Shown one piece after another: positions 1 to 63,998 of a stretch of 64,000 nt of DNA. Position 1 is the first letter of the stretch. Each line of letters opens with the position of its first letter. Source of the DNA: Patescibacteria group bacterium. Its GTDB lineage: Bacteria; Patescibacteriota; Minisyncoccia; Phycocordibacterales; WO2-35-19. The translations under genes and the position numbers were made by a program. The stretch covers positions 2,517-66,516 of the forward strand of contig JBBTQO010000001.1 of the NCBI GenBank assembly GCA_038065655.1, given 5' to 3'. The notes under the pieces were generated by a model. It searched no databases. It was not told the origin of the DNA and worked only from the letters and a program-made list of their open reading frames with translations.

Positions 1-271
1 TTTGGGTAATTCCCATAACATCACAATCAAAGAATGAAAAATTTTATAATAAATTTATATTTGATGAAAAAATATATTTTAGTTGTATTACTCAAATAAG
101 GACATTGAGTACCAAAAGATTTTTAAGAAAAATAGGTATGATGCAAGAAAATGATTTTAATAAAATAATAGATAAAGTGGGGAGTTTCTTAAAAAACGAA
201 ACCCCGCCAAATGACGGAGAATCTCGGAGGCCGAAGCCATAATCAAAGATAGTATAGCAAGTACAAAATAA

Positions 272-2056
272 ATGTCAAGAAAAATATTTAAAAAAATAAT
301 AATAGCGATACCTATACTCATCATCACTTTTGTAATGGTTTTTAATTATGAACCGACTGAAATAAAAGCTTTGACAGTGACTGGCTCGCCAAGTGCTGGC
401 GCTGGGGTGGGGGACAGTGGTACCAGTTGCAACAATGCCGACGGGGACTGGGCTAATCCAACTTTTGCCGCTAGTTCCAATAACTCATATACAGATTTTG
501 GTGGAAACTTTTTTGACGCCAATGAAATTTCTGATGAACTGCAAGTCTCTAATCTTGGTTTAGCATTGCCAGCCGGTTCAACTATTGATGGGATTACAGT
601 AGAAATTGAAAAATATGCCGGTGGGGGCGACTTGGCAGTAGATTATGATGTAAGACTGACAAAAACAGCTGGAGTGCAAATCGGTACCAATAAAACTGAT
701 ACGGCGACTAATTGGGCGACTGCAGATCCAAACTCCTATGTCTCATATGGTGGAGCAACTGATAAATGGGGCACGACTTGGACTGAAGCTGAAGTAGAGA
801 CAACAGGTTTTGGTTTGGTTTTTTGTGGCAAATCAAACAACGATGCTAATGTGAATTTATATATTGATCATATTCAAATTACGGTCTACTACACACCAGC
901 AATTTCAGTTGATCTGTCAGGGACGGTTTATCAAAGTAGCGGGGGTTCAAATATTGGGGCAAGTAAAACTATAACAGTTTACAAAAATGGTTCTACCTCT
1001 TTGGGTAGTGATACTACTGATATAAATGGAGCTTGGGCTTTGACCGGGCTCAATATTTCTTCGGGCGATATTATAAATGTATATATAGATGGAGATGCTA
1101 CATATAAAGGGAATACAGTCTTTGTCTCTGACGGCAACAATCAAACTAATGTTGATATTTACGGTAGCACCTTGATTGTTCGCCACGATACGGGAAGCAA
1201 CATAACAAATACAAATCTCTCTACTGCTAGAGTGGGGACTGACGCGAATGATATGGTCTATTCTGTTTCAGGTACAAATTTAACTGCTACTACTAGTGCT
1301 GAAATTCATGTTTGGACGGGGGACACATTTGCACCAGATGGTTTTATTAAAACTAATGGAGCTGTAAGCAATTTGCATATTGACGATAATGCTAGTGTAT
1401 CTCTCTCAACGACCGACAATATTATAAATGGAAATATCACGATTAATACTGGAGCAACACTTACCATATCAGCAGATACCAAACTTGGCGGCAACTTAAC
1501 CAACAACGGCACATTTACCCATAGCGCCAATACTTTGGAATTTATAAATAGCGCTACTCCATCTACTATTTTAAGCGCAACCGATATTTCGTTTAGCACT
1601 CTCAAATCAAGTGCGGCCGGTAAAATTATAAAATTCCAAAAACAAATCGCCGGCTCACCCAAGTTTACCATCACCGGACAATTTAATTTTCAAGGTCTTG
1701 CTGGTAATCCAATCAATATTAGTTCTGATACGTCAGGGACAGAGTGGCATATACATCTAAATTCAAGTCAAAGCAGTGTAAGTAACATCAGAGTCACTGA
1801 TTCGGCTTGCGCCGTTGGTACCAATTCAATATCAGCAAATGCCTCCATCATTGATGGGGGTAATAATGGTAGTTGCTGGGGGATAATAAATGTGAATGCT
1901 CCGCCTGCTGTTGGCGAAAGTCCTGGAGGGGGAGGGGGGACATTGAAAACCGGAGGTGGTCGAGGAGGTCAACAACCATCTGGCGCGACAGCAGATGGTG
2001 GCGGAGATTTAGAAACGGGAGGCACTGTTGCCCCGCCGACAGTAATATCACCGTAG
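272..2056 (+). CDS. Secreted/cell-surface protein with N-terminal signal-anchor, Thr/Ser/Gly/Asn-rich beta-rich body and a Gly-rich C-terminus
   Basis: 594-aa ORF; hydrophobic N-terminal helix (IIIAIPILIITFVMVF); low-complexity T/S/G/N-rich repeats; C-terminal GGGGGTLKTGGGRGG stretch; no recognisable catalytic motif. Confidence 0.5.
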   Translation: MSRKIFKKIIIAIPILIITFVMVFNYEPTEIKALTVTGSPSAGAGVGDSGTSCNNADGDWANPTFAASSNNSYTDFGGNFFDANEISDELQVSNLGLALPAGSTIDGITVEIEKYAGGGDLAVDYDVRLTKTAGVQIGTNKTDTATNWATADPNSYVSYGGATDKWGTTWTEAEVETTGFGLVFCGKSNNDANVNLYIDHIQITVYYTPAISVDLSGTVYQSSGGSNIGASKTITVYKNGSTSLGSDTTDINGAWALTGLNISSGDIINVYIDGDATYKGNTVFVSDGNNQTNVDIYGSTLIVRHDTGSNITNTNLSTARVGTDANDMVYSVSGTNLTATTSAEIHVWTGDTFAPDGFIKTNGAVSNLHIDDNASVSLSTTDNIINGNITINTGATLTISADTKLGGNLTNNGTFTHSANTLEFINSATPSTILSATDISFSTLKSSAAGKIIKFQKQIAGSPKFTITGQFNFQGLAGNPINISSDTSGTEWHIHLNSSQSSVSNIRVTDSACAVGTNSISANASIIDGGNNGSCWGIINVNAPPAVGESPGGGGGTLKTGGGRGGQQPSGATADGGGDLETGGTVAPPTVISP

Positions 2057-2153: not shown

Positions 2154-2642
2154 ATGAATGAAATTAGATTTAGTCAACCAGTTAGAGAAACTCCACCAGT
2201 AGAAAGTTCTTTGCCACAACCACCCAAAACTCCTTTTTTAAAAACTTTCTTTAAAATTGTCGGCTTGATTGTTGTTTTTGGTTTGATCATTTATGGAGCA
2301 ATACTTGTAAAGGGCAATTTTTTGGATAACTCAATTGAGGCTAGAAGTTCTTCTTACAGCGCCGTGTTTCTCATAAACGGGCAAGTTTATTTTGGCAAAA
2401 TGGTTAAAAATAATAATGAAGAAATAGTTTTAAATGATGTGTATTATCTTCAAGTAAACTCCGACAATCTTTCGGGAGGTCAGACAAATGCTCTAAACCA
2501 ATCGACCTTTAATTTGGTCAAACTGGGCAATGAACTTCATGGCCCAACCGATGAACTCTTTGTCAATAAAACGCAGGTTATATTTTATGAATATTTGAAA
2601 GATGATAGCAAAGTAGTGCAGTCTATAAAAAACTATAAATAA
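2154..2642 (+). CDS. Hypothetical membrane-anchored protein
   Basis: 162-aa ORF with a single TM helix (IVGLIVVFGLIIYGAILV) after a Pro-rich N-terminus; no recognisable family. Confidence 0.4.
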   Translation: MNEIRFSQPVRETPPVESSLPQPPKTPFLKTFFKIVGLIVVFGLIIYGAILVKGNFLDNSIEARSSSYSAVFLINGQVYFGKMVKNNNEEIVLNDVYYLQVNSDNLSGGQTNALNQSTFNLVKLGNELHGPTDELFVNKTQVIFYEYLKDDSKVVQSIKNYK

Positions 2643-2644
2643 TA

Positions 2645-2661
2645 CAGAAGGTGCCTTTCTG
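2645..2661. repeat. REP-like hairpin (family 1) upstream of RAYT: cagaagg-tgc-ctttctg
   Basis: 7-bp stem (one mismatch), 3-nt loop, 29 bp upstream of RAYT start; same motif at 2848-2864 and 3352-3368. Confidence 0.6.
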
Positions 2662-2689
2662 CAATTTACAATATATATAGAATAGGGGA

Positions 2690-3349
2690 ATGAGAAATAG
2701 AGATTATAAAATTTTTGCTCCAGATAGTTATTATCACGTATTTAATCGTGGAAATGCCAAAATGAAAATTTTTCTAGACCAGGAAGATTACAGATTTTTT
2801 CTTTGGCGTTTAAAAGAAAACTTATTTCCTGAACAAGTTGAAAAAAACAGAAGGGCACCTTCTGCAAATCTCCCAAAAGAAAGATATGTTCGCAAACTTC
2901 TACCGCCCAATTCGTTCAGTTTGATATGCTATTGTCTTATGCCGAATCATTTTCATCTTTTAATTAGGCAAAATTCTAAAATAAAAATAAGCGAACTAAT
3001 GCTTCGTGTTTGTGGTAGTTATGCAAAGTATTTTAATAAAAAATATGATCGTGTTGGGTCACTTTTTCAAGATCAATTCAAGGCTACTTTGGTAAACAAA
3101 AATAATTATTTGCTTTGGTTATCTGCGTATATACACGAAAATCCTCGAAAAGGAAAACTGGTAGATGAATTGGGGGATTGGGAATGGAGTAGTTACCTGG
3201 ATTATACGAGTCAAAAGCAAGGTGGTTTCTGTGAAAAGGAAATAATACTGGATCAATTAAACTCTAATGGTTACAAGGCATTCGTTAATCAGAATTTTGG
3301 TAAAAAAAGAGCTATAGAATTAAATGCTTTTCTTTTAGATTTTGAATAG
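2690..3349 (+). CDS. REP-associated tyrosine transposase (RAYT; IS200/IS605-like Y1 transposase, COG1943-type)
   Basis: 219 aa; N-terminal YHVFNRGN motif and HuH motif LMPNHFHLLI, typical of Y1 transposases; flanked on both sides by the same hairpin repeat. Confidence 0.8.
   Translation: MRNRDYKIFAPDSYYHVFNRGNAKMKIFLDQEDYRFFLWRLKENLFPEQVEKNRRAPSANLPKERYVRKLLPPNSFSLICYCLMPNHFHLLIRQNSKIKISELMLRVCGSYAKYFNKKYDRVGSLFQDQFKATLVNKNNYLLWLSAYIHENPRKGKLVDELGDWEWSSYLDYTSQKQGGFCEKEIILDQLNSNGYKAFVNQNFGKKRAIELNAFLLDFE
2848..2864. repeat. REP-like hairpin (family 1) copy inside the RAYT coding sequence: cagaagg-gca-ccttctg
   Basis: Perfect 7-bp stem with 3-nt loop; encodes in-frame residues (..NRRAPSANL..) of the RAYT itself. 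Confidence 0.6.
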
Positions 3350-3351
3350 TA

Positions 3352-3368
3352 CAGAAGGTGCCCTTCTG
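3352..3368. repeat. REP-like hairpin (family 1) downstream of RAYT: cagaagg-tgc-ccttctg
   Basis: Perfect 7-bp stem, 3-nt loop, begins 3 nt after the RAYT stop codon. Confidence 0.6.
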
Positions 3369-3613
3369 TATGGTGTTTTTATCCACTGTTTTTGCTTGAT
3401 AAAAAACCTAGATTTGCCAAAATATAGTTAGATTTATCAGTAGGTTATTAGTTAATAATAGTCTTTTCAAAGCTCCTTATTTTAGGAAGAAAAAAGAATC
3501 CGGATCTTTTTGCAGGTTTGCCGTCCTCGCTAAGCGGGGCACAGGCGAACGGAAAGAGATGGAATGCTGTTTTTTCTTCTTTTAAAACAAGAGGGAATAG
3601 GAAGGACCCAAAT

Positions 3614-6067
3614 AATATGGAACAAAATGTGGAGGCTCAAGTGAGCCAAAATAGTTCGGGTATGCCTGCGCATACAGGAAATGTGCTAGTCAAAAAACTG
3701 GGAGTTATTCTTTCGGTTTTTGTTTTTTTAATACCGGTGTTTTTTATGCCGGTAGCAGGAATTAGTTTGTATGTGGCTAAAATAACTCTCCTCGCAACGG
3801 GGCTGGTAGCCATGTTTTCAGTTTTTCTCTCCTCGGTCCTTTCAACCGGAGTGATTGAAATGCCTAAAGTTAAGTACCTTATACCCCTCAGTCTTTTTGC
3901 GGTAATAGCGCTAATATCATCAATACTCTCTGGGACGATTGAGTCCTCAATTGCAGGGGACATCTTTGATCCGGGTACTTCAGGTTTTATTTTGATGTTG
4001 GTTTTTTCGCTATTTCTGACGGTAGTGTCAGTTAGAAATATTGGTACGGTCGGCAAGGTGATGACGGCTTTTATTTATTCCACTATCGCTTTGGCGGTTT
4101 ACACATTGTTAGGAACATTTGGCTCATCACTGTTGCCAGAAGCTCTCGCTTCAAGAATGCCCATTTTCCTTTCCGGAGGTCTCATTGATACGGCTATAAT
4201 ATTTGGTGCGGCTGTCATACTCTCTCTTTGCGCTCTCAACATGACTGAAATATCCAAAAGAATGAGATACATTCTTTTGACTTTGATCGCTTTTTCTCTA
4301 CTGTTTATTGGCGCTGCCAATTTTTTGCCCGTAGTCGTGATGCTTGGCGTAGTTTCTCTAGTTTTCTTTGTCTATATTTTGTCATGGTCATTTGGCAGTC
4401 GCAGTGGATCGGGGGATGACTATATGCAAAATGCTTCAAATGGTGAAGGCGTTTATCAAGAAAATCCTGAGACCCACCAGAAAAAGATTTCTCTTTCATC
4501 GCTCGTGGTGCTCATTGCCATGGTGGTCCTTATCTTGGGCGGTTCAAGTATTGGTGGTTATCTTTCAAGAGTAATGAAAGTGCAATCAACCGAAATCAGA
4601 CCAAATTTTGAAACTACAATGAATTTGGCGATGAGCTCGTGGAAGCAAAATTTTGCTCTTGGTATCGGTCCAAATCGTTTTGCTTCATTCTGGGCTTCAC
4701 ACAAGCCGGTAGAAATTAATCAGACTCAATTTTGGAATTCAGATTTTTATACCGGCTCCGGTTTTGTACCGACTCTCGCTATCACTACCGGACTTCTCGG
4801 TTTACTCTCTTTGCTCGCATTTATCGTGATGTATATGATGAGTGGTATAAAAGCCATTTTCGCTCAAGCCAATGCGGGGCGTTCTAGATATCTTGCCACG
4901 GCTTCTTTCCTAGTTTCTCTTTATTTGTGGGTAATGCTTATTCTTTATACACCAAGCATTGCCGTCCTTGTCTTGGCTTTTGTTTTCACCGGTCTATTTA
5001 CTGTCACCCTAGTTCCTCAGGGGATTGTTGGTCTTTGGAGAATAAATATATTCTCAAATCCTAAAACTAATTTTCTTTCTGTTTTGACTACTGTGATTTT
5101 GCTTATAATGTCTGTGGCTGGCGGTTACTTTGTTTGGGAGAGAGCGGCCGCATCATATGTTTTCCAAAATGGCGTCTTGGAATATCAAAAGACGGGTAAT
5201 GCGGTTCTCGTCAAAGAATCAATAGTCAAATCCATCAATTTAGTTTCCAGAGATGTTTATTGGCGTGGCTTGGCTGAAATTTCTATGACTGATCTTGGTG
5301 TAGTTTTGGGAAAAATAACAAATCAAAATCAAATCACAGATACCGTCAGGACCGAAGCCCAGACTTTGATGGCCAATGCAGTTGAATCAGCTAAAAAAGC
5401 AGTAGAAATTGACAGAAGTAGTTTTCAAAACTGGTTTGCTTTGGCTAGAGTTTATGAAATCCTGGCTTCTAATGGTATAGAAGGATCATTAGATAGCGCT
5501 CGCGCTGCTTATGCTGAGGCGGCTTTGCGCTCGCCAAGCAATCCTTCGGTGCCACTTGCCGTCGCTAGATTGGACGCTATGGCTGGTAAAATTGATGATG
5601 CTAGAGCGAATATAATAAAAGCTTTGGAACTTAAGAATAATTACACTGATGCTTATTTTACTTTAGCTCAACTTGAAGTTGGGGCTAACAATATTCCAGC
5701 AGCTATAAGGTCAGTCGAGGCGGCCACTGTAGTAGAACCAAACAACGCGGGTCTTTTCTTCCAATTGGGTCTGCTCAAATATAATCAAAGAGACTTTGTT
5801 GGAGCTATTGGGGCGTTTGAAAGGTCAGTTACACTAGTCCCAGATTATGCTAATGCCAAATATTTCCTCGGGCTTTCTTATTATCAATCAAATAAAAAGG
5901 AAGATGCTCTAAAGCAATTTGAAGAAATTGGTGTCTCTAATCCAGATAATGAAGAAATAAAAACGATTCTGGCCAATCTGAGGGCGGGTAAGGCAATTTT
6001 CCAAGATGAGAAACCACCAGTTAGTACTCCAGAAAAAAGAACTGAACCGCCTATAAAGGAGGAATAA
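3614..6067 (+). CDS. Polytopic membrane protein (O-antigen ligase/Wzy-like region) with C-terminal TPR repeats
   Basis: ORF 3518-6067; proposed start at ATG 3614 preceded by GAAGGA SD. At least 10 predicted TM helices, then a C-terminal ~250 aa with TPR-like A/L/Y-rich repeats (..ALARVYEILASNG.., ..YFLGLSYYQSNKKEDALKQFEE..). Confidence 0.55.
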   Translation, partial: NMEQNVEAQVSQNSSGMPAHTGNVLVKKLGVILSVFVFLIPVFFMPVAGISLYVAKITLLATGLVAMFSVFLSSVLSTGVIEMPKVKYLIPLSLFAVIALISSILSGTIESSIAGDIFDPGTSGFILMLVFSLFLTVVSVRNIGTVGKVMTAFIYSTIALAVYTLLGTFGSSLLPEALASRMPIFLSGGLIDTAIIFGAAVILSLCALNMTEISKRMRYILLTLIAFSLLFIGAANFLPVVVMLGVVSLVFFVYILSWSFGSRSGSGDDYMQNASNGEGVYQENPETHQKKISLSSLVVLIAMVVLILGGSSIGGYLSRVMKVQSTEIRPNFETTMNLAMSSWKQNFALGIGPNRFASFWASHKPVEINQTQFWNSDFYTGSGFVPTLAITTGLLGLLSLLAFIVMYMMSGIKAIFAQANAGRSRYLATASFLVSLYLWVMLILYTPSIAVLVLAFVFTGLFTVTLVPQGIVGLWRINIFSNPKTNFLSVLTTVILLIMSVAGGYFVWERAAASYVFQNGVLEYQKTGNAVLVKESIVKSINLVSRDVYWRGLAEISMTDLGVVLGKITNQNQITDTVRTEAQTLMANAVESAKKAVEIDRSSFQNWFALARVYEILASNGIEGSLDSARAAYAEAALRSPSNPSVPLAVARLDAMAGKIDDARANIIKALELKNNYTDAYFTLAQLEVGANNIPAAIRSVEAATVVEPNNAGLFFQLGLLKYNQRDFVGAIGAFERSVTLVPDYANAKYFLGLSYYQSNKKEDALKQFEEIGVSNPDNEEIKTILANLRAGKAIFQDEKPPVSTPEKRTEPPIKEE

Positions 6068-7769: not shown

Positions 7770-9659
7770 ATGAATAACATCAGAAATTTCTGTATCATTG
7801 CTCATATTGACCACGGTAAATCTACTCTGGCAGATAGGATGCTTGAGATAACTGGCACCATAGAAGCTCGTAAAATGAAGGCTCAAGTGCTGGATTCTAT
7901 GGAGCTTGAAAGAGAGCGGGGGATTACTATAAAAATGCAACCTGTGCGGATGCTATATCATCCGCAAGCACGAAATCCGAAATCCGAAATCCGAAATTTC
8001 GAATTTGATGCTTCGAATTTAGAATTTGCAAATTCAGAATATATTCTGAATTTGATAGATACCCCCGGCCATATTGATTTTTCATATGAGGTTTCAAGGG
8101 CATTGAAAGCGGTAGAAGGAGCGATTCTTTTGGTTGACGCTACTCAAGGTATTCAAGCGCAAACTTTGTCGGTACTGGCTATGGCTAGAACCCAAGGTTT
8201 GGTTGTTATCCCAGCTTTGAGTAAGTGTGATTCGCCTTTGGCTAGAGTGGAAGAAGTAAAAGCGGAGATAATTTCACTACTTGATTGTCAGGAGGAAGAA
8301 ATAATAGAAACTTCTGGCAAAACAGGGGAGGGAGTGGAAAAACTTTTACTTAATATTATAGAAAAAATTCCAGCGCCAAATCTTGCCAAAGATGCCCTTT
8401 GCCATTTTCCGCTTCAAGCTCTTGTTTTTGATTTTAAATATTCCGCTCATCGGGGTATTATAGTTTTTGCCAGAATAATGAAAGGAGAAGTTTCGGCTAG
8501 AGAAAATTTAATTTTTAGAGTGGCGGGGCAAAAATTTGTGGCCTTGGAAGTGGGTATTTTTAAACCAGATGAAGAAGCTCAAAAATCATTAAAAGCTGGA
8601 GAAACCGGTTATATTGTCACCGGTATTAAAACTCCGGGCATAGTTTCTGTCGGCGATACTATTGGCAAAGAAAAAGAAAATGGCAAAGCCTTAGAAGGTT
8701 ACACCCTGCCAAATCCAGTAGTTTGGGCATCTGTTTTTCCTGAGGATCAAAGCGATTTGGTGGCCCTAAAACAGGCTTTGGCAAAATTGAAATTAACCGA
8801 CTCCTCGCTTTTTTATGAAGAAGAATCATCGGGAGTTTTGGGTAAAGGTTTTAGATGCGGTTTTTTGGGGATGCTTCATTTGGAAATTATTACTGAAAGA
8901 TTGAAAAGGGAATTTGATCTGACTTTGATTATTACTCAACCGTCCATCACTTATCATTTAGAATATAAAAATGGTAAATTTGAAAAAATTTTTTCGCCAG
9001 CCTTTTTCCCGGAAGATGGTTTAATTGAAAAAATAGAAGAACCTTGGGTCAATGTTCACATTATTACCCCTTCTCAATATGTGGGGGGCCTTTTGCCGCT
9101 ACTTTATGAATATGAGGCTGAAATAGTTTCTGCCGAAGGGCATCTTCAAAATGCTCCGATCCCAGAAGATGCCCTTCGGCGGAAAACAAACATCCACACT
9201 CTGATGCCATTAAGGGAGTTGATGCGTGGTTTTTTTGATAAGCTTAAGAGTGTCTCTCAAGGATATGCCTCTCTCTCCTATGAAGAAGCGGGGATGAGGC
9301 GGGCTAATGTCACCAAACTCTGTGTTTTGGTAAATGGAGAAGAAGAACCGTCTCTTTCTCGAGTAGTTTCTAAAAGAATTGTCGAAAGAGAAGCGGAGTC
9401 TATTGTGGAGAAACTTAAAAATCTTTTACCGCGCCAAATGTTTGAGCTCAAAATACAGGCAAAAGCTCTCGGTAGAATCATCGCTTCGCGTTCTATTTCG
9501 GCTTATCGAAAAGATGTTACTCAACATATGTATGGTGGGGACATTACTCGCAAAATGAAGCTTAGAGAAAAACAGAAAAAGGGCAAAAAGAAAATGAAAG
9601 AAAGAGGTAAAATATTGATACCCCAAGATGTTTTTATAAAAATAATGCGCCCCGACTAA
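7770..9659 (+). CDS. lepA: Elongation factor 4 (LepA) with an in-frame low-complexity insertion in the G domain
   Basis: N-terminus NIRNFCIIAHIDHGKSTLADRMLE, DTPGHIDF, C-terminal LepA domain. An extra ~20 aa (PQARNPKSEIRNFEFDASNLEFANSEY) lies before DTPGH; it is encoded by the hairpin plus heptamer tandem repeat at 7944-8046. Confidence 0.9.
   Translation: MNNIRNFCIIAHIDHGKSTLADRMLEITGTIEARKMKAQVLDSMELERERGITIKMQPVRMLYHPQARNPKSEIRNFEFDASNLEFANSEYILNLIDTPGHIDFSYEVSRALKAVEGAILLVDATQGIQAQTLSVLAMARTQGLVVIPALSKCDSPLARVEEVKAEIISLLDCQEEEIIETSGKTGEGVEKLLLNIIEKIPAPNLAKDALCHFPLQALVFDFKYSAHRGIIVFARIMKGEVSARENLIFRVAGQKFVALEVGIFKPDEEAQKSLKAGETGYIVTGIKTPGIVSVGDTIGKEKENGKALEGYTLPNPVVWASVFPEDQSDLVALKQALAKLKLTDSSLFYEEESSGVLGKGFRCGFLGMLHLEIITERLKREFDLTLIITQPSITYHLEYKNGKFEKIFSPAFFPEDGLIEKIEEPWVNVHIITPSQYVGGLLPLLYEYEAEIVSAEGHLQNAPIPEDALRRKTNIHTLMPLRELMRGFFDKLKSVSQGYASLSYEEAGMRRANVTKLCVLVNGEEEPSLSRVVSKRIVEREAESIVEKLKNLLPRQMFELKIQAKALGRIIASRSISAYRKDVTQHMYGGDITRKMKLREKQKKGKKKMKERGKILIPQDVFIKIMRPD
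7944..8046. repeat. Intragenic structured repeat in lepA: 8-bp hairpin, 3.5 x heptamer cgaaatc, palindrome cagaatatattctg
   Basis: tgcggatg-ctatat-catccgca hairpin (7945-7966); tandem cgaaatc cgaaatc cgaaatc cgaaatt (7969-7996); perfect 14-nt palindrome at 8033-8046; shares an aatttagaatt core (opposite orientation) with the repeat in the methyltransferase gene at 28632-28703. Confidence 0.55.
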
Positions 9660-14418: not shown

Positions 14419-14862
14419 ATGAAAGTAATTCTTAAAGAGAACATAAAAGGAGTAGGGCATAAATATGAAATAAAAGATGTATCTGATGGTTATGCCAACA
14501 ATTTTCTGATACCAAAAAAACTAGCTGAGTATGCCAGTCCAGATGCTGTCAAAAAAGCTGAAATTTTGAAATCAGCAAACGAAGCGGAAATTGAAATAAG
14601 AGAAAAATTAACTGAAAAACAGATAGAGATGCTAAAAGGAGTAACAGTTGTTTTAAAAAAGAAAGGCAACGAAAAAGGACATTTATTTGAAAAAATTCAT
14701 CCAGAAGAAATATCGGCTGTTTTAAAAGAACAGGCAAAAATAGAAATTGATTCAGAATTTATTATTCTTGAAAATCCTATTAAGGAAATAGGGGAGCACA
14801 CAATAGCTGTTAAGGTGGGCAAGAGTAAGGGAGAATTTAAATTAAAAATAGAGCTAATCTAA
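14419..14862 (+). CDS. rplI: 50S ribosomal protein L9
   Basis: N-terminus MKVILKENIKGVGHKYEIKDVSDGYANNFLIPKKLA is canonical L9; the ORF finder extended to 14401; ATG at 14419 chosen. Confidence 0.85.
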   Translation: MKVILKENIKGVGHKYEIKDVSDGYANNFLIPKKLAEYASPDAVKKAEILKSANEAEIEIREKLTEKQIEMLKGVTVVLKKKGNEKGHLFEKIHPEEISAVLKEQAKIEIDSEFIILENPIKEIGEHTIAVKVGKSKGEFKLKIELI

Positions 14863-14871
14863 AAACTCTTT

Positions 14872-14980
14872 CTCGTCATAAGTTTTGAAAAGCACGCATA
14901 ATTTTCTGCTGAAAATTTGCTCACGCTCGCCTCAGTCAGTCTGCGCGAGTCTTTTCAAAACTTACGACCACGACGAGTTT
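14872..14980. terminator. Bidirectional structured terminator between convergent rplI and rpmA
   Basis: Long imperfect stem ctcgtcataagttttgaaaag ... cttttcaaaacttacgaccacgacgag enclosing smaller hairpins (aattttc-tgctg-gaaaatt), followed by TTTTTT. Confidence 0.5.
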
Positions 14981-14981
14981 T

Positions 14982-15254
14982 TTAAACTACAGTGGCGATT
15001 TTTTTGACAATAGTGGAGCCGTCAAAGTGGACTTTTCTTTTGGAAGCCATTTTGACTTTGCCGTCTTTGAGAGCAAAAAGAGTATAATCTCTGCCCATAC
15101 CGACACCATTGCCGGGTAGGATGTTTGAACCTCTTTGACGCACCAAAATACAGCCCGTATTGCAGGAGCTTCCGTCTGAGAGCTTAATTCCTAGAAATTT
15201 TGGGTTGGAATCTCTCCCGTTTTTAGTTGTACCGGCGGCTTTTTTATGTGCCAT
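14982..15254 (-). CDS. rpmA: 50S ribosomal protein L27
   Basis: [24 protein letters not shown]... canonical L27 N-terminus. Confidence 0.9.
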
Positions 15255-16077: not shown

Positions 16078-16554
16078 TTGGGGTTTATAATGATAGCTTC
16101 AAATATTACTGGTTTTGGTGGGGCATCGTTTGTGCCAAACACCTTACCACCAGAAGTTATAAAAATTAAAGAAACTCTTCCAAGTGACAATAAAAAAATT
16201 GTAACTAAGAAGAATATAACCGTCGAAGAGTATGTGAGAAATTATTTCTCAGACATACCAGTTTTGGTTGAAATCGCTAGATGCGAATCTCGTTTTCGTC
16301 AACATGATAAAGAGGGAGGAGTTTTGCGTGGTGAAGAGAATAATCTTGATCGTGGAGTTATGCAGATCAATGAATACTATCACAACGAAAATTCTGACAA
16401 ACTTGGATATGACATCCTTACTCTAGAAGGGAACACCGCCTACGCTAGACACCTTTTTGAAAAGTATGGTGTCAAGCCTTGGAAGTCCTCTATCAGGTGT
16501 TGGGGGGGGACTGTTGCCTACTCTGAATATAAAGACCTGGCGGTTAACAAGTAA
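16078..16554 (+). CDS. Lytic transglycosylase-like (SLT/lysozyme-like domain) protein
   Basis: 158 aa; IARCESRFRQ (candidate catalytic Glu-Ser), GVMQINEYYH, AYARHLFEKYG motifs reminiscent of SLT-domain transglycosylases. Confidence 0.5.
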   Translation: MGFIMIASNITGFGGASFVPNTLPPEVIKIKETLPSDNKKIVTKKNITVEEYVRNYFSDIPVLVEIARCESRFRQHDKEGGVLRGEENNLDRGVMQINEYYHNENSDKLGYDILTLEGNTAYARHLFEKYGVKPWKSSIRCWGGTVAYSEYKDLAVNK

Positions 16555-16571
16555 AATTAAAAAAGGAAAAA

Positions 16572-16600
16572 TAGCTCCTCCAAACGGGGGAGCTGTTTTT
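16572..16600 (+). terminator. Rho-independent terminator after the transglycosylase-like gene
   Basis: agctcc-tccaaacggg-ggagct hairpin followed by TTTTTC. Confidence 0.5.
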
Positions 16601-16668
16601 CTTAGTAAAAGCCAAAGGGCACCTTCTGGGACCGGGGCATTCTGAAGGTGCCCTTTGGCTTTTACTAA
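16600..16668. repeat. 26-bp perfect inverted repeat (REP family-1 doublet) with 17-nt spacer
   Basis: cttagtaaaagccaaagggcaccttc / gaaggtgccctttggcttttactaag; arms contain the gggcaccttctg core of the RAYT-associated hairpin at 2645-3368. Confidence 0.7.
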
Positions 16669-16776
16669 GAGATGGTAGGAACGTCGCACAATATATCTTC
16701 GCGACTCAACCAAAGGTTGGGTCGCGAAAGATAACGCCCATTTTTAGAATAAAATAATTATATTAAAAATATTCCC

Positions 16777-17037
16777 CTACTTTAACTTGGCTATGAGATT
16801 TTTTGCAAATTCAGAAACGTAATTCCAGACCCTGATTATGGCCCCGTTGTATTTTTCCCAGCCTTGAGAGCCCAGGCTGTAAAATTGATCCAAGAGCTCC
16901 TTAAATCGGCCTTGGGTCAAGAAACCCACAACATCTATGTTGTATACATATTTTAGAAGCACTAATGCGCCGATAATTATAATAATTATTTGGATAAAAC
17001 CAGTTTTTTTAGGAGATTTTATTTTTTTGTTTTTCAT
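16777..17037 (-). CDS. Small hypothetical membrane protein
   Basis: 86 aa, one TM helix (IQIIIIIIGALVLL); no recognisable family. Confidence 0.3.
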   Translation of the reverse strand: MKNKKIKSPKKTGFIQIIIIIIGALVLLKYVYNIDVVGFLTQGRFKELLDQFYSLGSQGWEKYNGAIIRVWNYVSEFAKNLIAKLK

Positions 17038-42466: not shown

Positions 42467-43477
42467 ATGAAAAAGAAAAAAGAGTCATTAGTCTTGGGGC
42501 GTATGTTGCAAAAAATCGCGTCTCGCATTGGGGCAACTATCATTTTGGAACCTGAATGGGGTATTGTTGGCCAAATTACCTTCAAGAGTGGCCGCTTTTC
42601 CTATTTCAGGTATAACACTGTGGATTTGAATCCAATGGGAGCTTCGGAAATTGCAAAGGATAAAGACTATGCCAACTTCTTTATGAAGCGCATGGGCTAC
42701 CCCATTGTTCCGGGCAGTAAGACATTTTTTTCGGATTCATGGGGTAAGGCTATCGGAGCATCTCATCGCAACACCCTTGCTGCTTATCGGTATGCTCAAA
42801 CGCTGGGCCTGCCGGTTATTGTAAAGCCAAACAGCGGTAGTCAAGGAAGAGGGGTCACTCTCGTTCATAACAAACGCGAATTCTACCGAGCAATGCGCAC
42901 AGTCTTTGAGATTGATCGCGTCGCTTTGGTCCAACAGCCTGTGCATGGCAAGGATTATAGAATAGTCGTTTTAGACGAAAGAGTGATTTCAGCTTACGAG
43001 CGGATACCACTCAATGTTATTGGCAACGGGAGGTCAACGATAAGTAATTTGCTCAAAAAGAAGCAGCAAGAATTCGTTGCTTCAAGCCGTGACACCAATA
43101 TCAAGAAGAATGACCCTCGCATAACTGAGAAGCTGAAGCATCAAGGGTTAAATCTTCAGTCAGTTTTGGCTCAAGGGGAGAGGGTTTTTCTTCTTGATAA
43201 TGCCAATCTGTCTGCTGGTGGAGATTCGGCAGATGTCACAGCAAACATGCACCCAACCTTTGGTAAGATTGCCATAAAGCTGACCAAAGATATGGGGCTT
43301 CGTTTGTGTGGGGTTGATCTTATGATTGATGGCGACATCAGCCAAAAATCATCACCTTTTTGGGTCCTTGAGATTAATTCTGCACCTGGTCTTGATCACT
43401 ATTCAAGGTCCGGTAAGGCGCAGGAGAAAATTGTTGAGGATTTATATCTCGAAGTACTGAAAAGTATGGAGAGATAA
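42467..43477 (+). CDS. Standalone ATP-grasp ligase resembling the ATP-grasp (G) domain of cyanophycin synthetase CphA
   Basis: 336 aa; motifs IVKPNSGSQGRGV, DYRIVVLDERVISAYERIPLNVIGNGRSTI, DNANLSAGGDSADVT, VLEINSAPG. From memory these align with the CphA ATP-grasp core (..VIGDGRSTI.., ..ANLSTGG.., ..EVNAAPG..); also RimK/CofF-like. Confidence 0.65.
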   Translation: MKKKKESLVLGRMLQKIASRIGATIILEPEWGIVGQITFKSGRFSYFRYNTVDLNPMGASEIAKDKDYANFFMKRMGYPIVPGSKTFFSDSWGKAIGASHRNTLAAYRYAQTLGLPVIVKPNSGSQGRGVTLVHNKREFYRAMRTVFEIDRVALVQQPVHGKDYRIVVLDERVISAYERIPLNVIGNGRSTISNLLKKKQQEFVASSRDTNIKKNDPRITEKLKHQGLNLQSVLAQGERVFLLDNANLSAGGDSADVTANMHPTFGKIAIKLTKDMGLRLCGVDLMIDGDISQKSSPFWVLEINSAPGLDHYSRSGKAQEKIVEDLYLEVLKSMER

Positions 43478-62924: not shown

Positions 62925-63998
62925 TTAATCTATTATACCACCCCCCAAACAAATTTCACCATCATATAAAACCAAAGATTGACCGGGAGAGATGCCTATT
63001 TGAGGTTGGTCAAAAATGACTCTTGTTTGCCCGTCCTTGATTTGAATTTTGCATTTTATTTTTTCTTGACGGTATCGGATGCGACAAGATAAATTTTTGT
63101 TTGGGATTTTTCCGATTAAATTTATATCCTTGATAGAAATTTCTTGGGACAAATTTGACGACCGTCCAAAATGTCGTAACTCTTGTTTTGAACTTACTGT
63201 TATCAAGTTTTTTTCAACATTTTTAGCAATTACATACAAAGGCACTTCGCTCTCTGTTTTTTGGGTAATGGTAAAGCCGTGGCGTTCGCCGATAGTGAAA
63301 AAGAGAGCACCGTTGTGGTGGCCGATTATTTCCCCATCCAGATCTAAAACGTCACCTCTTTTTTGAGGAATATATCTGGCCAAAAATTCTTTCATATTAA
63401 TTTTGCCCAAAAAGCAAAGCCCTTGGCTATCCTTCCTTGTTTCTTGTGGCAGGCCAAATTTACCTGCAAGTTTTCGAACTTCTGATTTTTGCAGATGGCC
63501 GATAGGAAAAAGAATGTGTTTAAGTTGTTCTTGGGTTAAGGTCCAGAGGAAGTATGATTGGTCTTTGTTTTTATCAATACCTTCAAGAAGCTGATTTCCC
63601 AATGTCCGACGTTTGCAACGGTTCCCAACGTCGGACATTGGGGGCATTCTTGCATAGTGTCCGGTAGCTACAAAATCAGCGCCATTTTTTAAAGCAAATT
63701 TTAGAAAGTGGCCAAACTTTATTTCTTTATTGCACATCACGTCTGGATTGGGAGTCCGCCCTTGCCTGTATTCATCAATCATATAATCAACCACTTCTTT
63801 TTTATATTCTTTTTCTAAATCAAGAGTGATGAAAGGAATATTTAAAATCGCGGCCACCTTCATGGCGCTCCGCCTATCTTCCTTCCAACTGCAAGGATAA
63901 CCTTCTGGTGTCCAAGCCTTAATAAAAACTCCAGTCACATCATAGCCATCTTTTTGCAACAAAGTTACTGAAACAGCGCTATCTACTCCGCCCGACAA
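62925..63998 (-). CDS. mnmA: tRNA-specific 2-thiouridylase MnmA (5' end runs off the window), carrying an in-frame REP family-2 doublet
   Basis: PP-loop SGGVDSAV, ..GHYAR.., NKDQSYFL, C-terminal domain. The ORF-finder start is a TTG; the true start is likely beyond coordinate 64000. The insert MPPMSDVGNRCKRRTLGN is encoded by the palindromic repeat at 63598-63643. Confidence 0.85.
   Translation of the reverse strand: MSGGVDSAVSVTLLQKDGYDVTGVFIKAWTPEGYPCSWKEDRRSAMKVAAILNIPFITLDLEKEYKKEVVDYMIDEYRQGRTPNPDVMCNKEIKFGHFLKFALKNGADFVATGHYARMPPMSDVGNRCKRRTLGNQLLEGIDKNKDQSYFLWTLTQEQLKHILFPIGHLQKSEVRKLAGKFGLPQETRKDSQGLCFLGKINMKEFLARYIPQKRGDVLDLDGEIIGHHNGALFFTIGERHGFTITQKTESEVPLYVIAKNVEKNLITVSSKQELRHFGRSSNLSQEISIKDINLIGKIPNKNLSCRIRYRQEKIKCKIQIKDGQTRVIFDQPQIGISPGQSLVLYDGEICLGGGIID
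63598..63643. repeat. REP family-2 inverted doublet (perfect 16-bp arms cccaatgtccgacgtt / aacgtcggacattggg) inserted in-frame in mnmA
   Basis: Arms are exact reverse complements separated by tgcaacggttccc; 48 nt total, a multiple of 3, in a variable loop of MnmA between GHYAR and NKDQSYFL. Confidence 0.7.

Follow-up and report, generated by a model that had tools for sequence, protein, structure and literature searches.

REP sequences (repetitive extragenic palindromes) that pair in inverted orientation around a spacer to form long hairpins (REPINs), and their partner genes, the REP-associated tyrosine transposases (RAYTs), have mostly been studied in Proteobacteria and are treated as extragenic, with classical REPINs numbering tens to hundreds per genome. 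REPINs have been described in a long-hairpin form as well as in a 'clover' form, and the maintenance of their hairpins by compensatory changes is documented (Bertels & Rainey 2011, PMC3116915). Rickettsia palindromic elements (RPEs) are known for in-frame insertion into housekeeping genes (PMC10969869). In the literature searched we found no description of REP, REPIN, RAYT or palindromic in-frame elements in Patescibacteria. Here, we analyzed a palindromic hairpin at positions 16600–16670 of a 64-kb stretch of Patescibacteria DNA (64,000 nucleotides, termed the window), which originates from the 0.1-µm fraction of the Hainich groundwater metagenome. This focal hairpin is a member of a palindromic element family dispersed among Zambryskibacteria-like Patescibacteria. 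It is probably a REPIN-type element, composed of two inverted GAAGG-TGC-CCTTC units and a conserved 17-nt spacer and cognate to a RAYT-like Y1 transposase gene located 13 kb upstream.

The region 16555–16740 is the gap between two convergent open reading frames (ORFs; 16078–16554 on the plus strand and 16777–17037 on the minus strand) and contains three separate hairpins. The original prediction had described the central one as a perfect inverted repeat of 26/26 bp. The arms, comprising residues 16600–16626 and 16644–16670, are complementary at 27/27 positions, one base pair more than anticipated, and enclose a 17-nt loop (16627–16643), resulting in an element of 71 nt without an assigned strand. 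It is the longest perfect inverted repeat of the window, and given the base composition chance alone would produce a perfect 27-bp inverted repeat within 120 nt ~2e-9 times per window. Each arm holds its own local hairpin, AAGG-GCA-CCTT. The inner 49 nt (16611–16659; GCCAAAGGGCACCTTC, 17 nt, GAAGGTGCCCTTTGGC) represent the minimal element of the family, the outer 11 bp of each arm form a long-arm variant, and the loop matches the orientation of the family consensus (AGAATGCCCCGGTCCCA) on the minus strand. The REP core GGGCACCTTCTG that had been assigned to both arms matches the left arm exactly and the right arm with a single mismatch. Folding calculations indicated that the three hairpins form independently, as DNA (−58 kcal/mol, z = −12.0) as well as RNA (−102.6 kcal/mol, z = −12.9). 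The sequence of the focal hairpin, including the exact arms, was identical in 7/7 independent ENA and Logan assemblies spanning the site, obtained from different samples, and therefore is not an assembly artefact. The contigs of these assemblies run straight through the site and lend no support to the earlier suggestion of a recombination hotspot or assembly breakpoint.

Using pattern scans together with protein-anchored look-ups, we identified further copies of the element, dispersed to non-homologous sites. A copy of a Saccharibacteria metagenome-assembled genome (MAG; L049) lies inside a serine/threonine-rich ORF, whereas that of Hainich H43-bin098_1 (L089, the same as L144) is located inside TsaD, leaving its ORF intact. 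Two copies reside in one LepA gene of L141 and one inside LepA of L142, a further one immediately downstream of LepA in L145, a relative with 72–80% DNA identity, and the copy of L148 occupies the site orthologous to the focal one. We aligned eight copies over 71 columns (two each from the window and L141, one each from L049, L089, L145 and L148). The 17-nt loop is common to all eight and almost invariant (consensus ARAMTGYYCCGRTYCCA), and the hairpin is kept up by compensatory changes, as 16 of the 27 stem pairs show changes on both sides. The covariation score of 0.386 compares with 0.187 ± 0.027 in shuffled alignments, none of 500 reaching the observed value, and slid controls did not exceed 0.18. 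Element size ranges from 49 to 71 nt, the minimal form consisting of a 16-nt arm, the conserved 17-nt spacer and a second 16-nt arm, with GAAGG-TGC-CCTTC in each arm.

Over 63 nt, including the outer arm TAAAAGYCAAAGGG, the copy in L145 and the focal one are 93.7% identical, and the former shares most of the long-arm variant. As TAAAAGYCAAAGGG thereby recurs at a different site, most of the 'arm extension' is family sequence, and only the outermost few base pairs of the focal arms are peculiar to the focal copy. The 13-nt extension highlighted in the original prediction has no other occurrence in the window but recurs in the L145 copy with two substitutions. An origin of the outer arms as a pre-existing target hairpin was largely rejected for this reason. 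In total, the 64-kb window contains two doublets, three single units and one remnant. Using the conserved-loop pattern, we obtained two strict matches in H43, the one Hainich assembly of a metagenome collection in which most relevant samples are evidently missing, and a viral scan returned two unrelated hairpins. Separately, a Hainich MAG contig (L091) contains two kinds of doublet (2666–2706 and 5150–5192), one in which an unrelated 13-nt spacer separates two complete CAGAAGG-GCA-CCTTCTG units and the other consisting of AAGGGTCCCCCTT, 15 nt and AAGGGGGACCCTT.

The family is not confined to extragenic space, as members lie in frame in LepA, TsaD, the serine/threonine-rich protein and the Y1 gene. 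The second doublet of the window (9127–9185, plus strand), with 21-bp arms carrying one mismatch and the loop AAAATGCTCCGATCCCA, lies in frame in LepA, where it covers amino acids ~452–472 and encodes VSAEGHLQNAPIPEDALRRK, the predicted LepA peptide being AEGHLQNAPIPEDALR. LepA is still an intact ORF of 629 aa with full domain coverage, its nearest named relatives belonging to Candidatus Zambryskibacteria. The loop of this doublet agrees at 14/17 positions with the focal loop in reverse complement, at the same 17-nt spacing. Orthologous genes differ in the presence of the element: in LepA orthologues of 77–89% identity the site is either filled or empty (STENL-NN-KTNI), close orthologues lacking the insertion, and in L149 it is empty at the DNA level. 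In L142 the ancestral codons are intact and followed by a clean 49-nt element (GCCAAAGGGCGTCTTC, 17-nt spacer, GAAGACGCTCTTTGGC), an insertion that defines the minimal element as 16 + 17 + 16 nt. The L143 site retains one arm, similar to a REP singlet. Furthermore, the same LepA site contains the loop in opposite orientations in the window (AEGHL-QNAPIP-EDAL) and in L141 (AEGHL-LGPGHF-EGAL), indicating either loop inversion by recombination of the arms or independent insertions in either direction. Both orientations are open in frame (window 9127–9185 and L141 4698–4768; proteins P0008, P0010 and P0012).

Two further hot spots in LepA, at amino acids ~66–85 and ~195–215, show diverse palindromic insertions in different relatives. 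At the latter the window has an arm-like remnant, GCCAAAGATGCCCTTTGC (8385–8402, plus strand; amino acids ~206–211, AKDALC), and this third insertion hot spot is occupied by full doublets in L141 and L149 and by single units in L142 and L145. At the other spot we observed a second, unrelated palindrome in the window (7964–8029), an imperfect 66-nt structure of CGAAATC-type tandem units encoding ARNPKSEIRNFEFDASNLEFAN, which is missing in T. thermophilus EF4 and many close orthologues. Relatives contain other palindrome-derived peptides there (KLKIENCKLKI, EGPERSEG). All the genes with such insertions are still intact ORFs whose domains are fully covered.

The candidate partner gene (2690–3349, plus strand) encodes a RAYT-like Y1 (HUH) transposase of 219 aa. 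Its HUH motif (H87, H89) and Tyr147 are intact and invariant across 60 Y1 homologues. The ORF matches Pfam Y1_Tnp with E = 6.5e-12, and the sole NCBIfam match of the protein is REP_Tyr_transpos with 53 bits, under the 80-bit equivalog cutoff. A PDB sequence search with the protein gave no match, and the relation was seen by fold search. Based on its AlphaFold model (pLDDT 84.5), the best PDB match is 4er8_A, the Escherichia coli TnpA-REP with a REP hairpin (E = 3.5e-6; template modelling score 0.70, normalised to the target), ranking ahead of the IS200, IS608 and ISDra2 transposases. We obtained 4,227 homologues at E ≤ 1e-10; the source names of the best 120 of these are all Patescibacteria lineages, and some are called RayT by JGI.

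The Y1 gene is bounded by two copies of the unit found in the focal arms. The 5′ unit CAGAAGG-TGC-CTTTCTG (2645–2661, plus strand), with one stem mismatch, marks the left end and the 3′ unit CAGAAGG-TGC-CCTTCTG (3352–3368, plus strand) the right end of a 736-bp cassette (2643–3378). A third unit is inverted (CAGAAGGGCACCTTCTG on the plus strand) and lies within the ORF (2848–2864, minus strand), encoding NRRAPSA. The REP core GGGCACCTTCTG is likewise exact at 2853 inside the gene and at 3352 next to it. The window contains exactly three copies of the 14-mer CAGAAGGTGCCCTT, at 3352 (plus), 2851 (minus) and 16615 (minus), corresponding to the Y1 3′ flank, the interior of the Y1 ORF and the focal arm, against an expectation of 1.8e-4. 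The focal arms are thus local hairpins of the Y1-associated unit, rendering the focal element an inverted doublet of that unit. Neither GTAG nor GTGG stands at the foot of the units, whose sequence is TA-CAGAAGG...CCTTCTG-TA/CA/TT. The NRRAPSA segment is a hypervariable protein loop of low model confidence. In the closest Y1 homologues the unit is conserved and the segment contains RRAPSA, derived from an in-frame copy of the REP unit of the gene itself. The transposase gene may harbour the very hairpin that its product recognises, be it an insertion or a means of autoregulation. In distant homologues we noticed RRAPSPG, RGAPS and VPF-type peptides in the hypervariable segment (alignment columns ~60–95), resembling translations of related units.

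Comparison with relatives identified the cassette as a discrete insertion or deletion. A Y1 gene is missing from the closest syntenic relative (L139/L140), which reads CTATAAATAA-ATC-TTATCCAC where in the window the sequence 2643–3378 stands between CTATAAATAA and TTATCCAC. Relative to L008, the cassette is 98–100% identical (window 2640–3380, L008 1788–2530), whereas the flanks reach just 57–93%, the steps in identity coinciding with the flanking hairpin units. This near-identity amid diverged flanks marks the 736-bp cassette as a discrete, recently exchanged piece and suggests that it was recently transferred or replaced as a unit between strains. The contigs fetched for identical Y1 proteins all represent one locus, and the neighbouring genes are the same on every contig reported. 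The unit is kept with the Y1 gene in L008 and also in L143 (Y1 85% identical), where the units on either side of the gene have inverted orientation, the arrangement of classical RAYT loci (REPtrons), and not the direct one of the window. The contig of L148/L149 starts within MurJ, short of the syntenic Y1 position.

The focal site itself was compared in three syntenic loci (L146, L147 and L148), reached via homologues of the adjacent 86-aa gene; in L139, L140 and L145 synteny ends before the site. In L148, whose 86-aa protein is 71% identical, the element is found at the orthologous position with conserved flanks on both sides and the loop in the same orientation. Its arms, CCAAGGGGAACCCTT and AAGGGTTCTCCTTAAT, show four differences from the focal arms, compensated across the stem, with the left arm forming a perfect local hairpin (AAGGG-GAA-CCCTT) and the right arm a near match. 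In L146 and L147, syntenic loci too diverged for exact boundaries, the full element is missing and short arm-like remnants are found. The filled site of L148 and the remnants of L146 and L147 indicate either a long-occupied site with concerted arm evolution or a recurrent target.

Taken together, the focal hairpin is best explained as a non-autonomous element, selfish or near-neutral, of which the focal copy has settled where two convergent genes end, in a transcriptionally quiet stretch flanked by their terminators. In a scheme modelled on TnpA-REP and IS200/IS605, the Y1 enzyme would mobilise these elements by single-strand chemistry. A single-stranded element could fold in two ways, as a long inert hairpin or as a 'clover' of two small unit hairpins. 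The HUH/Tyr enzyme would bind the small hairpins and cut at their feet, and the excised single strand would be re-joined at a new single-stranded site. The original prediction of a doublet resembling bacterial interspersed mosaic elements (BIMEs) or of a RAYT substrate thus holds for the RAYT-type Y1 ORF, the shared unit and the dispersed family, while cleavage or mobilisation by the enzyme is put forward by analogy.

Several observations weigh against this assignment. The L148 element at the orthologous site could reflect long residence and in-situ evolution rather than recent mobility. Different arm types share the same or a related spacer (AAGGG-GAA-CCCTT in L148, AGGGTGACCCT in L149), and the spacer appears more conserved than the arms, unlike what a simple logic of an enzyme recognising the arm would predict. 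The apparent copy number is low, with the two doublets of the window and the two strict matches in the Hainich H43 assembly, and the units lack a GT[AG]G tag. L141 contains two doublets with GGGCACCTTC arms, and the sole Y1 gene on its 5.9-kb contig is 39% identical and flanked by a different hairpin (GTGTCAAAG-TCGGA-CTTTGACAC), which weakens L141 as evidence for co-occurrence. The link between the Y1 enzyme and the elements, finally, is drawn from sequence and predicted fold. As a separate observation, the L141 Y1 gene lies at 143–790 (minus strand) with its hairpin flanks at 785–860 and 140–175, and the flanking stem GTGTCAAAG / CTTTGACAC equals the outer arm of the TsaD copy of L089 (GGTGTCAAAGGGCACC...). 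This match hints that arms may be modular or nested.

These points bear on a first alternative, in which a palindromic miniature element has spread independently of the Y1 gene of the window, the cassette merely carrying or targeting such hairpins. The spread could instead be due to a different transposase, to template switching at quasi-palindromes, or to copies recombining or undergoing gene conversion with each other. A conserved spacer with interchangeable arm types suggests that the arms are not the sole determinant, and the L141 doublets occur on a contig whose Y1 gene has different flanking hairpins. That the Y1 flanks and the focal arm agree exactly over 14 nt, however, is very unlikely by chance, and the unit is conserved alongside the Y1 gene in L143 and L008. 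The three LepA hot spots, hit repeatedly and by several unrelated palindrome families, also favour this reading, and with thousands of diverse Y1 homologues in Patescibacteria the true partner could be a different one. On the other hand, the predicted fold of the Y1 protein is that of a hairpin-binding REP nuclease, and no other transposase candidate was seen near any copy. Overall, we consider Y1-independent spread unlikely.

A second alternative regards the hairpin as an RNA or DNA structure selected by the host, the 17-nt loop binding a factor and the element insulating the convergent units or protecting their 3′ ends. A nearly invariant loop on covarying stems is the classic signature of a functional structure, and the focal site is flanked by two terminator-like hairpins. 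However, the stem itself is followed by no T-tract and matches no Rfam family, and copies lie in frame in LepA, TsaD and the serine/threonine-rich protein, where a terminator or insulator would harm. The orthologous site of L148 holds the same loop in the same orientation with four compensated arm differences, which favours this reading, whereas L146 and L147 do without the full element and the loop occurs in both orientations at one and the same LepA site. We therefore judge a host-selected structure to be improbable, although a mobile element may have been co-opted for a local role. An origin by chance or through faulty assembly, for instance as a fold-back chimera, has nothing in its favour other than the general tendency of assemblers toward palindromic joins and is refuted by the seven identical assemblies, the expectation of 2e-9 per window and the homologous copies in other genomes. 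The REPIN-type element cognate to the Y1 gene thus remains our favoured interpretation.

The arm core extends beyond Patescibacteria. Scanning the genome collection with the pattern AGGGCAYCTTC-N12-22-GAAGRTGCCCT yielded at least 120 loci (L019–L138). Among the matches listed, nearly all are from Actinomycetota and three from Patescibacteria-type MAGs (L049, L089 and L091); Catellatospora species have at least 10–17 loci each, and Micromonospora, Amycolatopsis, Actinomycetospora, Saccharopolyspora, Streptomyces sp. and Rhodococcus are also represented. The actinobacterial elements, which are abundant REPIN-like hairpins, have the exact arm core AGGGCACCTTC / GAAGGTGCCCT and the 17–18-nt spacing in common with the Patescibacteria element. 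Their spacers are often palindromic themselves, and the outer arms appear genus-specific. Example loci are L020 2001–2040 and L032 37–76 and 847–886. By tblastn, no Y1 or LepA genes were detected near the 120 loci listed, so that no RAYT candidate emerged from these loci for the actinobacterial elements. A coincidental sharing of both arm core and spacing appears unlikely for a repeat family.

Based on these features, it is possible, though we put it forward tentatively, that the Patescibacteria elements constitute an undescribed class combining REPIN-RAYT features with RPE-like behaviour. Such a class would be characterised by a size of 49–71 nt, a conserved spacer in either orientation, interchangeable mini-hairpin arms, repeated in-frame insertion in surface loops (the three LepA hot spots, TsaD and the transposase) and an arm core common with Actinomycetota. 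If true, these elements remodel essential proteins in ultra-small genomes, and the common arm core would suggest that the two phyla share a recognition hairpin, either of ancient origin or through horizontal exchange.

A RAYT-like gene together with hairpin doublets in a groundwater lineage of the candidate phyla radiation (CPR), whose genome is expected to be tiny and whose close relatives differ in element presence, offers a tractable natural system for studying target choice by single-strand HUH transposases. It also opens a route to asking how palindromic DNA turns into protein sequence, in an RPE-like manner but with a candidate enzyme at hand, and such elements are a possible cause of some unexplained insertions in CPR housekeeping proteins. 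For annotation, it matters that these elements give conserved marker genes strong hairpins and variable lengths, which can interfere with assembly, binning and phylogenetic alignments.

The two neighbouring hairpins are both outside the repeat family. The conventional terminator that had been proposed downstream of the first gene corresponds to a terminator-like hairpin at 16566–16601 (plus strand), where an A-tract, a 16-bp stem (88% complementary) and TTTTT end the 158-aa gene 16078–16554. It is the only one of the three hairpins with the classical terminator form, and L146–L148 have counterparts at the same position with different sequence. The 'transglycosylase-like' annotation of this upstream gene is plausible, with matches of the soluble lytic transglycosylase (SLT) type all sub-threshold, and the exact sequence of its product was absent from the protein records looked up. 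The third, imperfect hairpin is present as anticipated at 16698–16728 (minus strand; 14-bp stem, 93%, one mismatch), downstream of the 86-aa gene. This hairpin is a conserved structure specific to the locus, and its stem covaries among the window, L147 and L148. Immediately 3′ of it lies an invariant, single-copy 23-nt block, GATATATTGTGCGACGTTCCTAC (16675–16697, minus strand), conserved in four genomes. Downstream of the 86-aa gene, hairpin and block together form a non-coding element that is conserved and present once (16675–16728, minus strand), in which the covarying hairpin is followed by the invariant GATATATTGTGCGACGTTCCTAC; its counterparts are located at L146 4345–4361, L147 4435–4451 and L148 4413–4429. 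L147 and L148 show an additional covarying hairpin upstream, and L148 also a possible closing GGGGG/CCCCC helix. The element could represent a 3′-untranslated-region structure, an unusual terminator or a small RNA. Rfam contained no family for the hairpins or the conserved block (gathering-threshold search on the window, E-value search on the three orthologous loci). Elsewhere in the window, further sizeable inverted repeats are found at 63598–63642, 14861–14982 and 43096–43202, one of these being a 22-bp near-palindrome (91%) with GTCGGAC.

Comparing the focal element with known systems, its resemblance to Rho-independent terminators is limited to a GC-containing stem-loop downstream of convergent genes. 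A role as intrinsic terminator was rejected, as the 27-bp stem, unlike a terminator, encloses a 17-nt loop and has no T-tract after it on either strand; within the stem the terminator scan flagged sub-hairpins only, in addition to the adjacent hairpin 16566–16601. With the BIMEs of E. coli it shares the inverted pairing of REP units in an extragenic position downstream of a gene. In BIMEs, however, Y and Z REPs alternate as a mosaic joined by defined linker motifs, and the BIMEs bind IHF, gyrase or Pol I; none of these motifs or partners is evident here, whereas the present element has a single conserved 17-nt spacer and occurs in coding sequence too. Similar to IS200 and the miniatures derived from IS200/IS605, subterminal hairpins would be recognised by a Y1 HUH transposase, and the 736-bp cassette, a discrete insertion or deletion, matches IS200 in size (~0.7 kb) and layout (tnpA as the sole gene, with hairpins at both ends). 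An autonomous IS200 was nevertheless rejected for the cassette, since it is found at one locus, its Y1 protein fits RAYT and not IS200 models, and the orientation of the flanking hairpins varies, the left one differing between the window (direct) and L143 (inverted).

The REPIN-RAYT systems provide the closest match. In common are the short palindromic units, inverted around a spacer to give a long hairpin with an alternative 'clover' fold, a unit flanking the Y1 HUH gene at one locus, the singlet remnants, the compensatory changes and a Y1 fold nearest to TnpA-REP (4er8). In contrast to REPINs, the units are very short (13–17 nt), copies are apparently few and many of them lie in frame within genes, and the Y1 cassette looks recently exchanged among strains and not strictly vertical. 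The units also differ in the missing GT[AG]G tag, which some TnpA-Y1 subclasses likewise lack (Quentin et al. 2018, PMC6006769). In the present family conservation is higher in the spacer than in the arms; in Pseudomonas fluorescens REPINs it is the reverse, the REPs being better conserved than the spacer (PMC3116915). Likewise, RPEs are palindromic and lie in frame in unrelated housekeeping genes of a reduced genome, where they contribute a peptide segment and leave the gene intact, with intergenic copies as well. They are alphaproteobacterial, ~100–150 bp long and without a known transposase partner, whereas the present element measures 49–71 nt, shows no apparent sequence kinship and has a candidate Y1 partner, its focal copy being intergenic. 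It is thus an analogue of the RPEs and not a member, and the RPE-like behaviour applies to the family rather than to the focal hairpin, which is an ordinary member of a family in which the interest lies.

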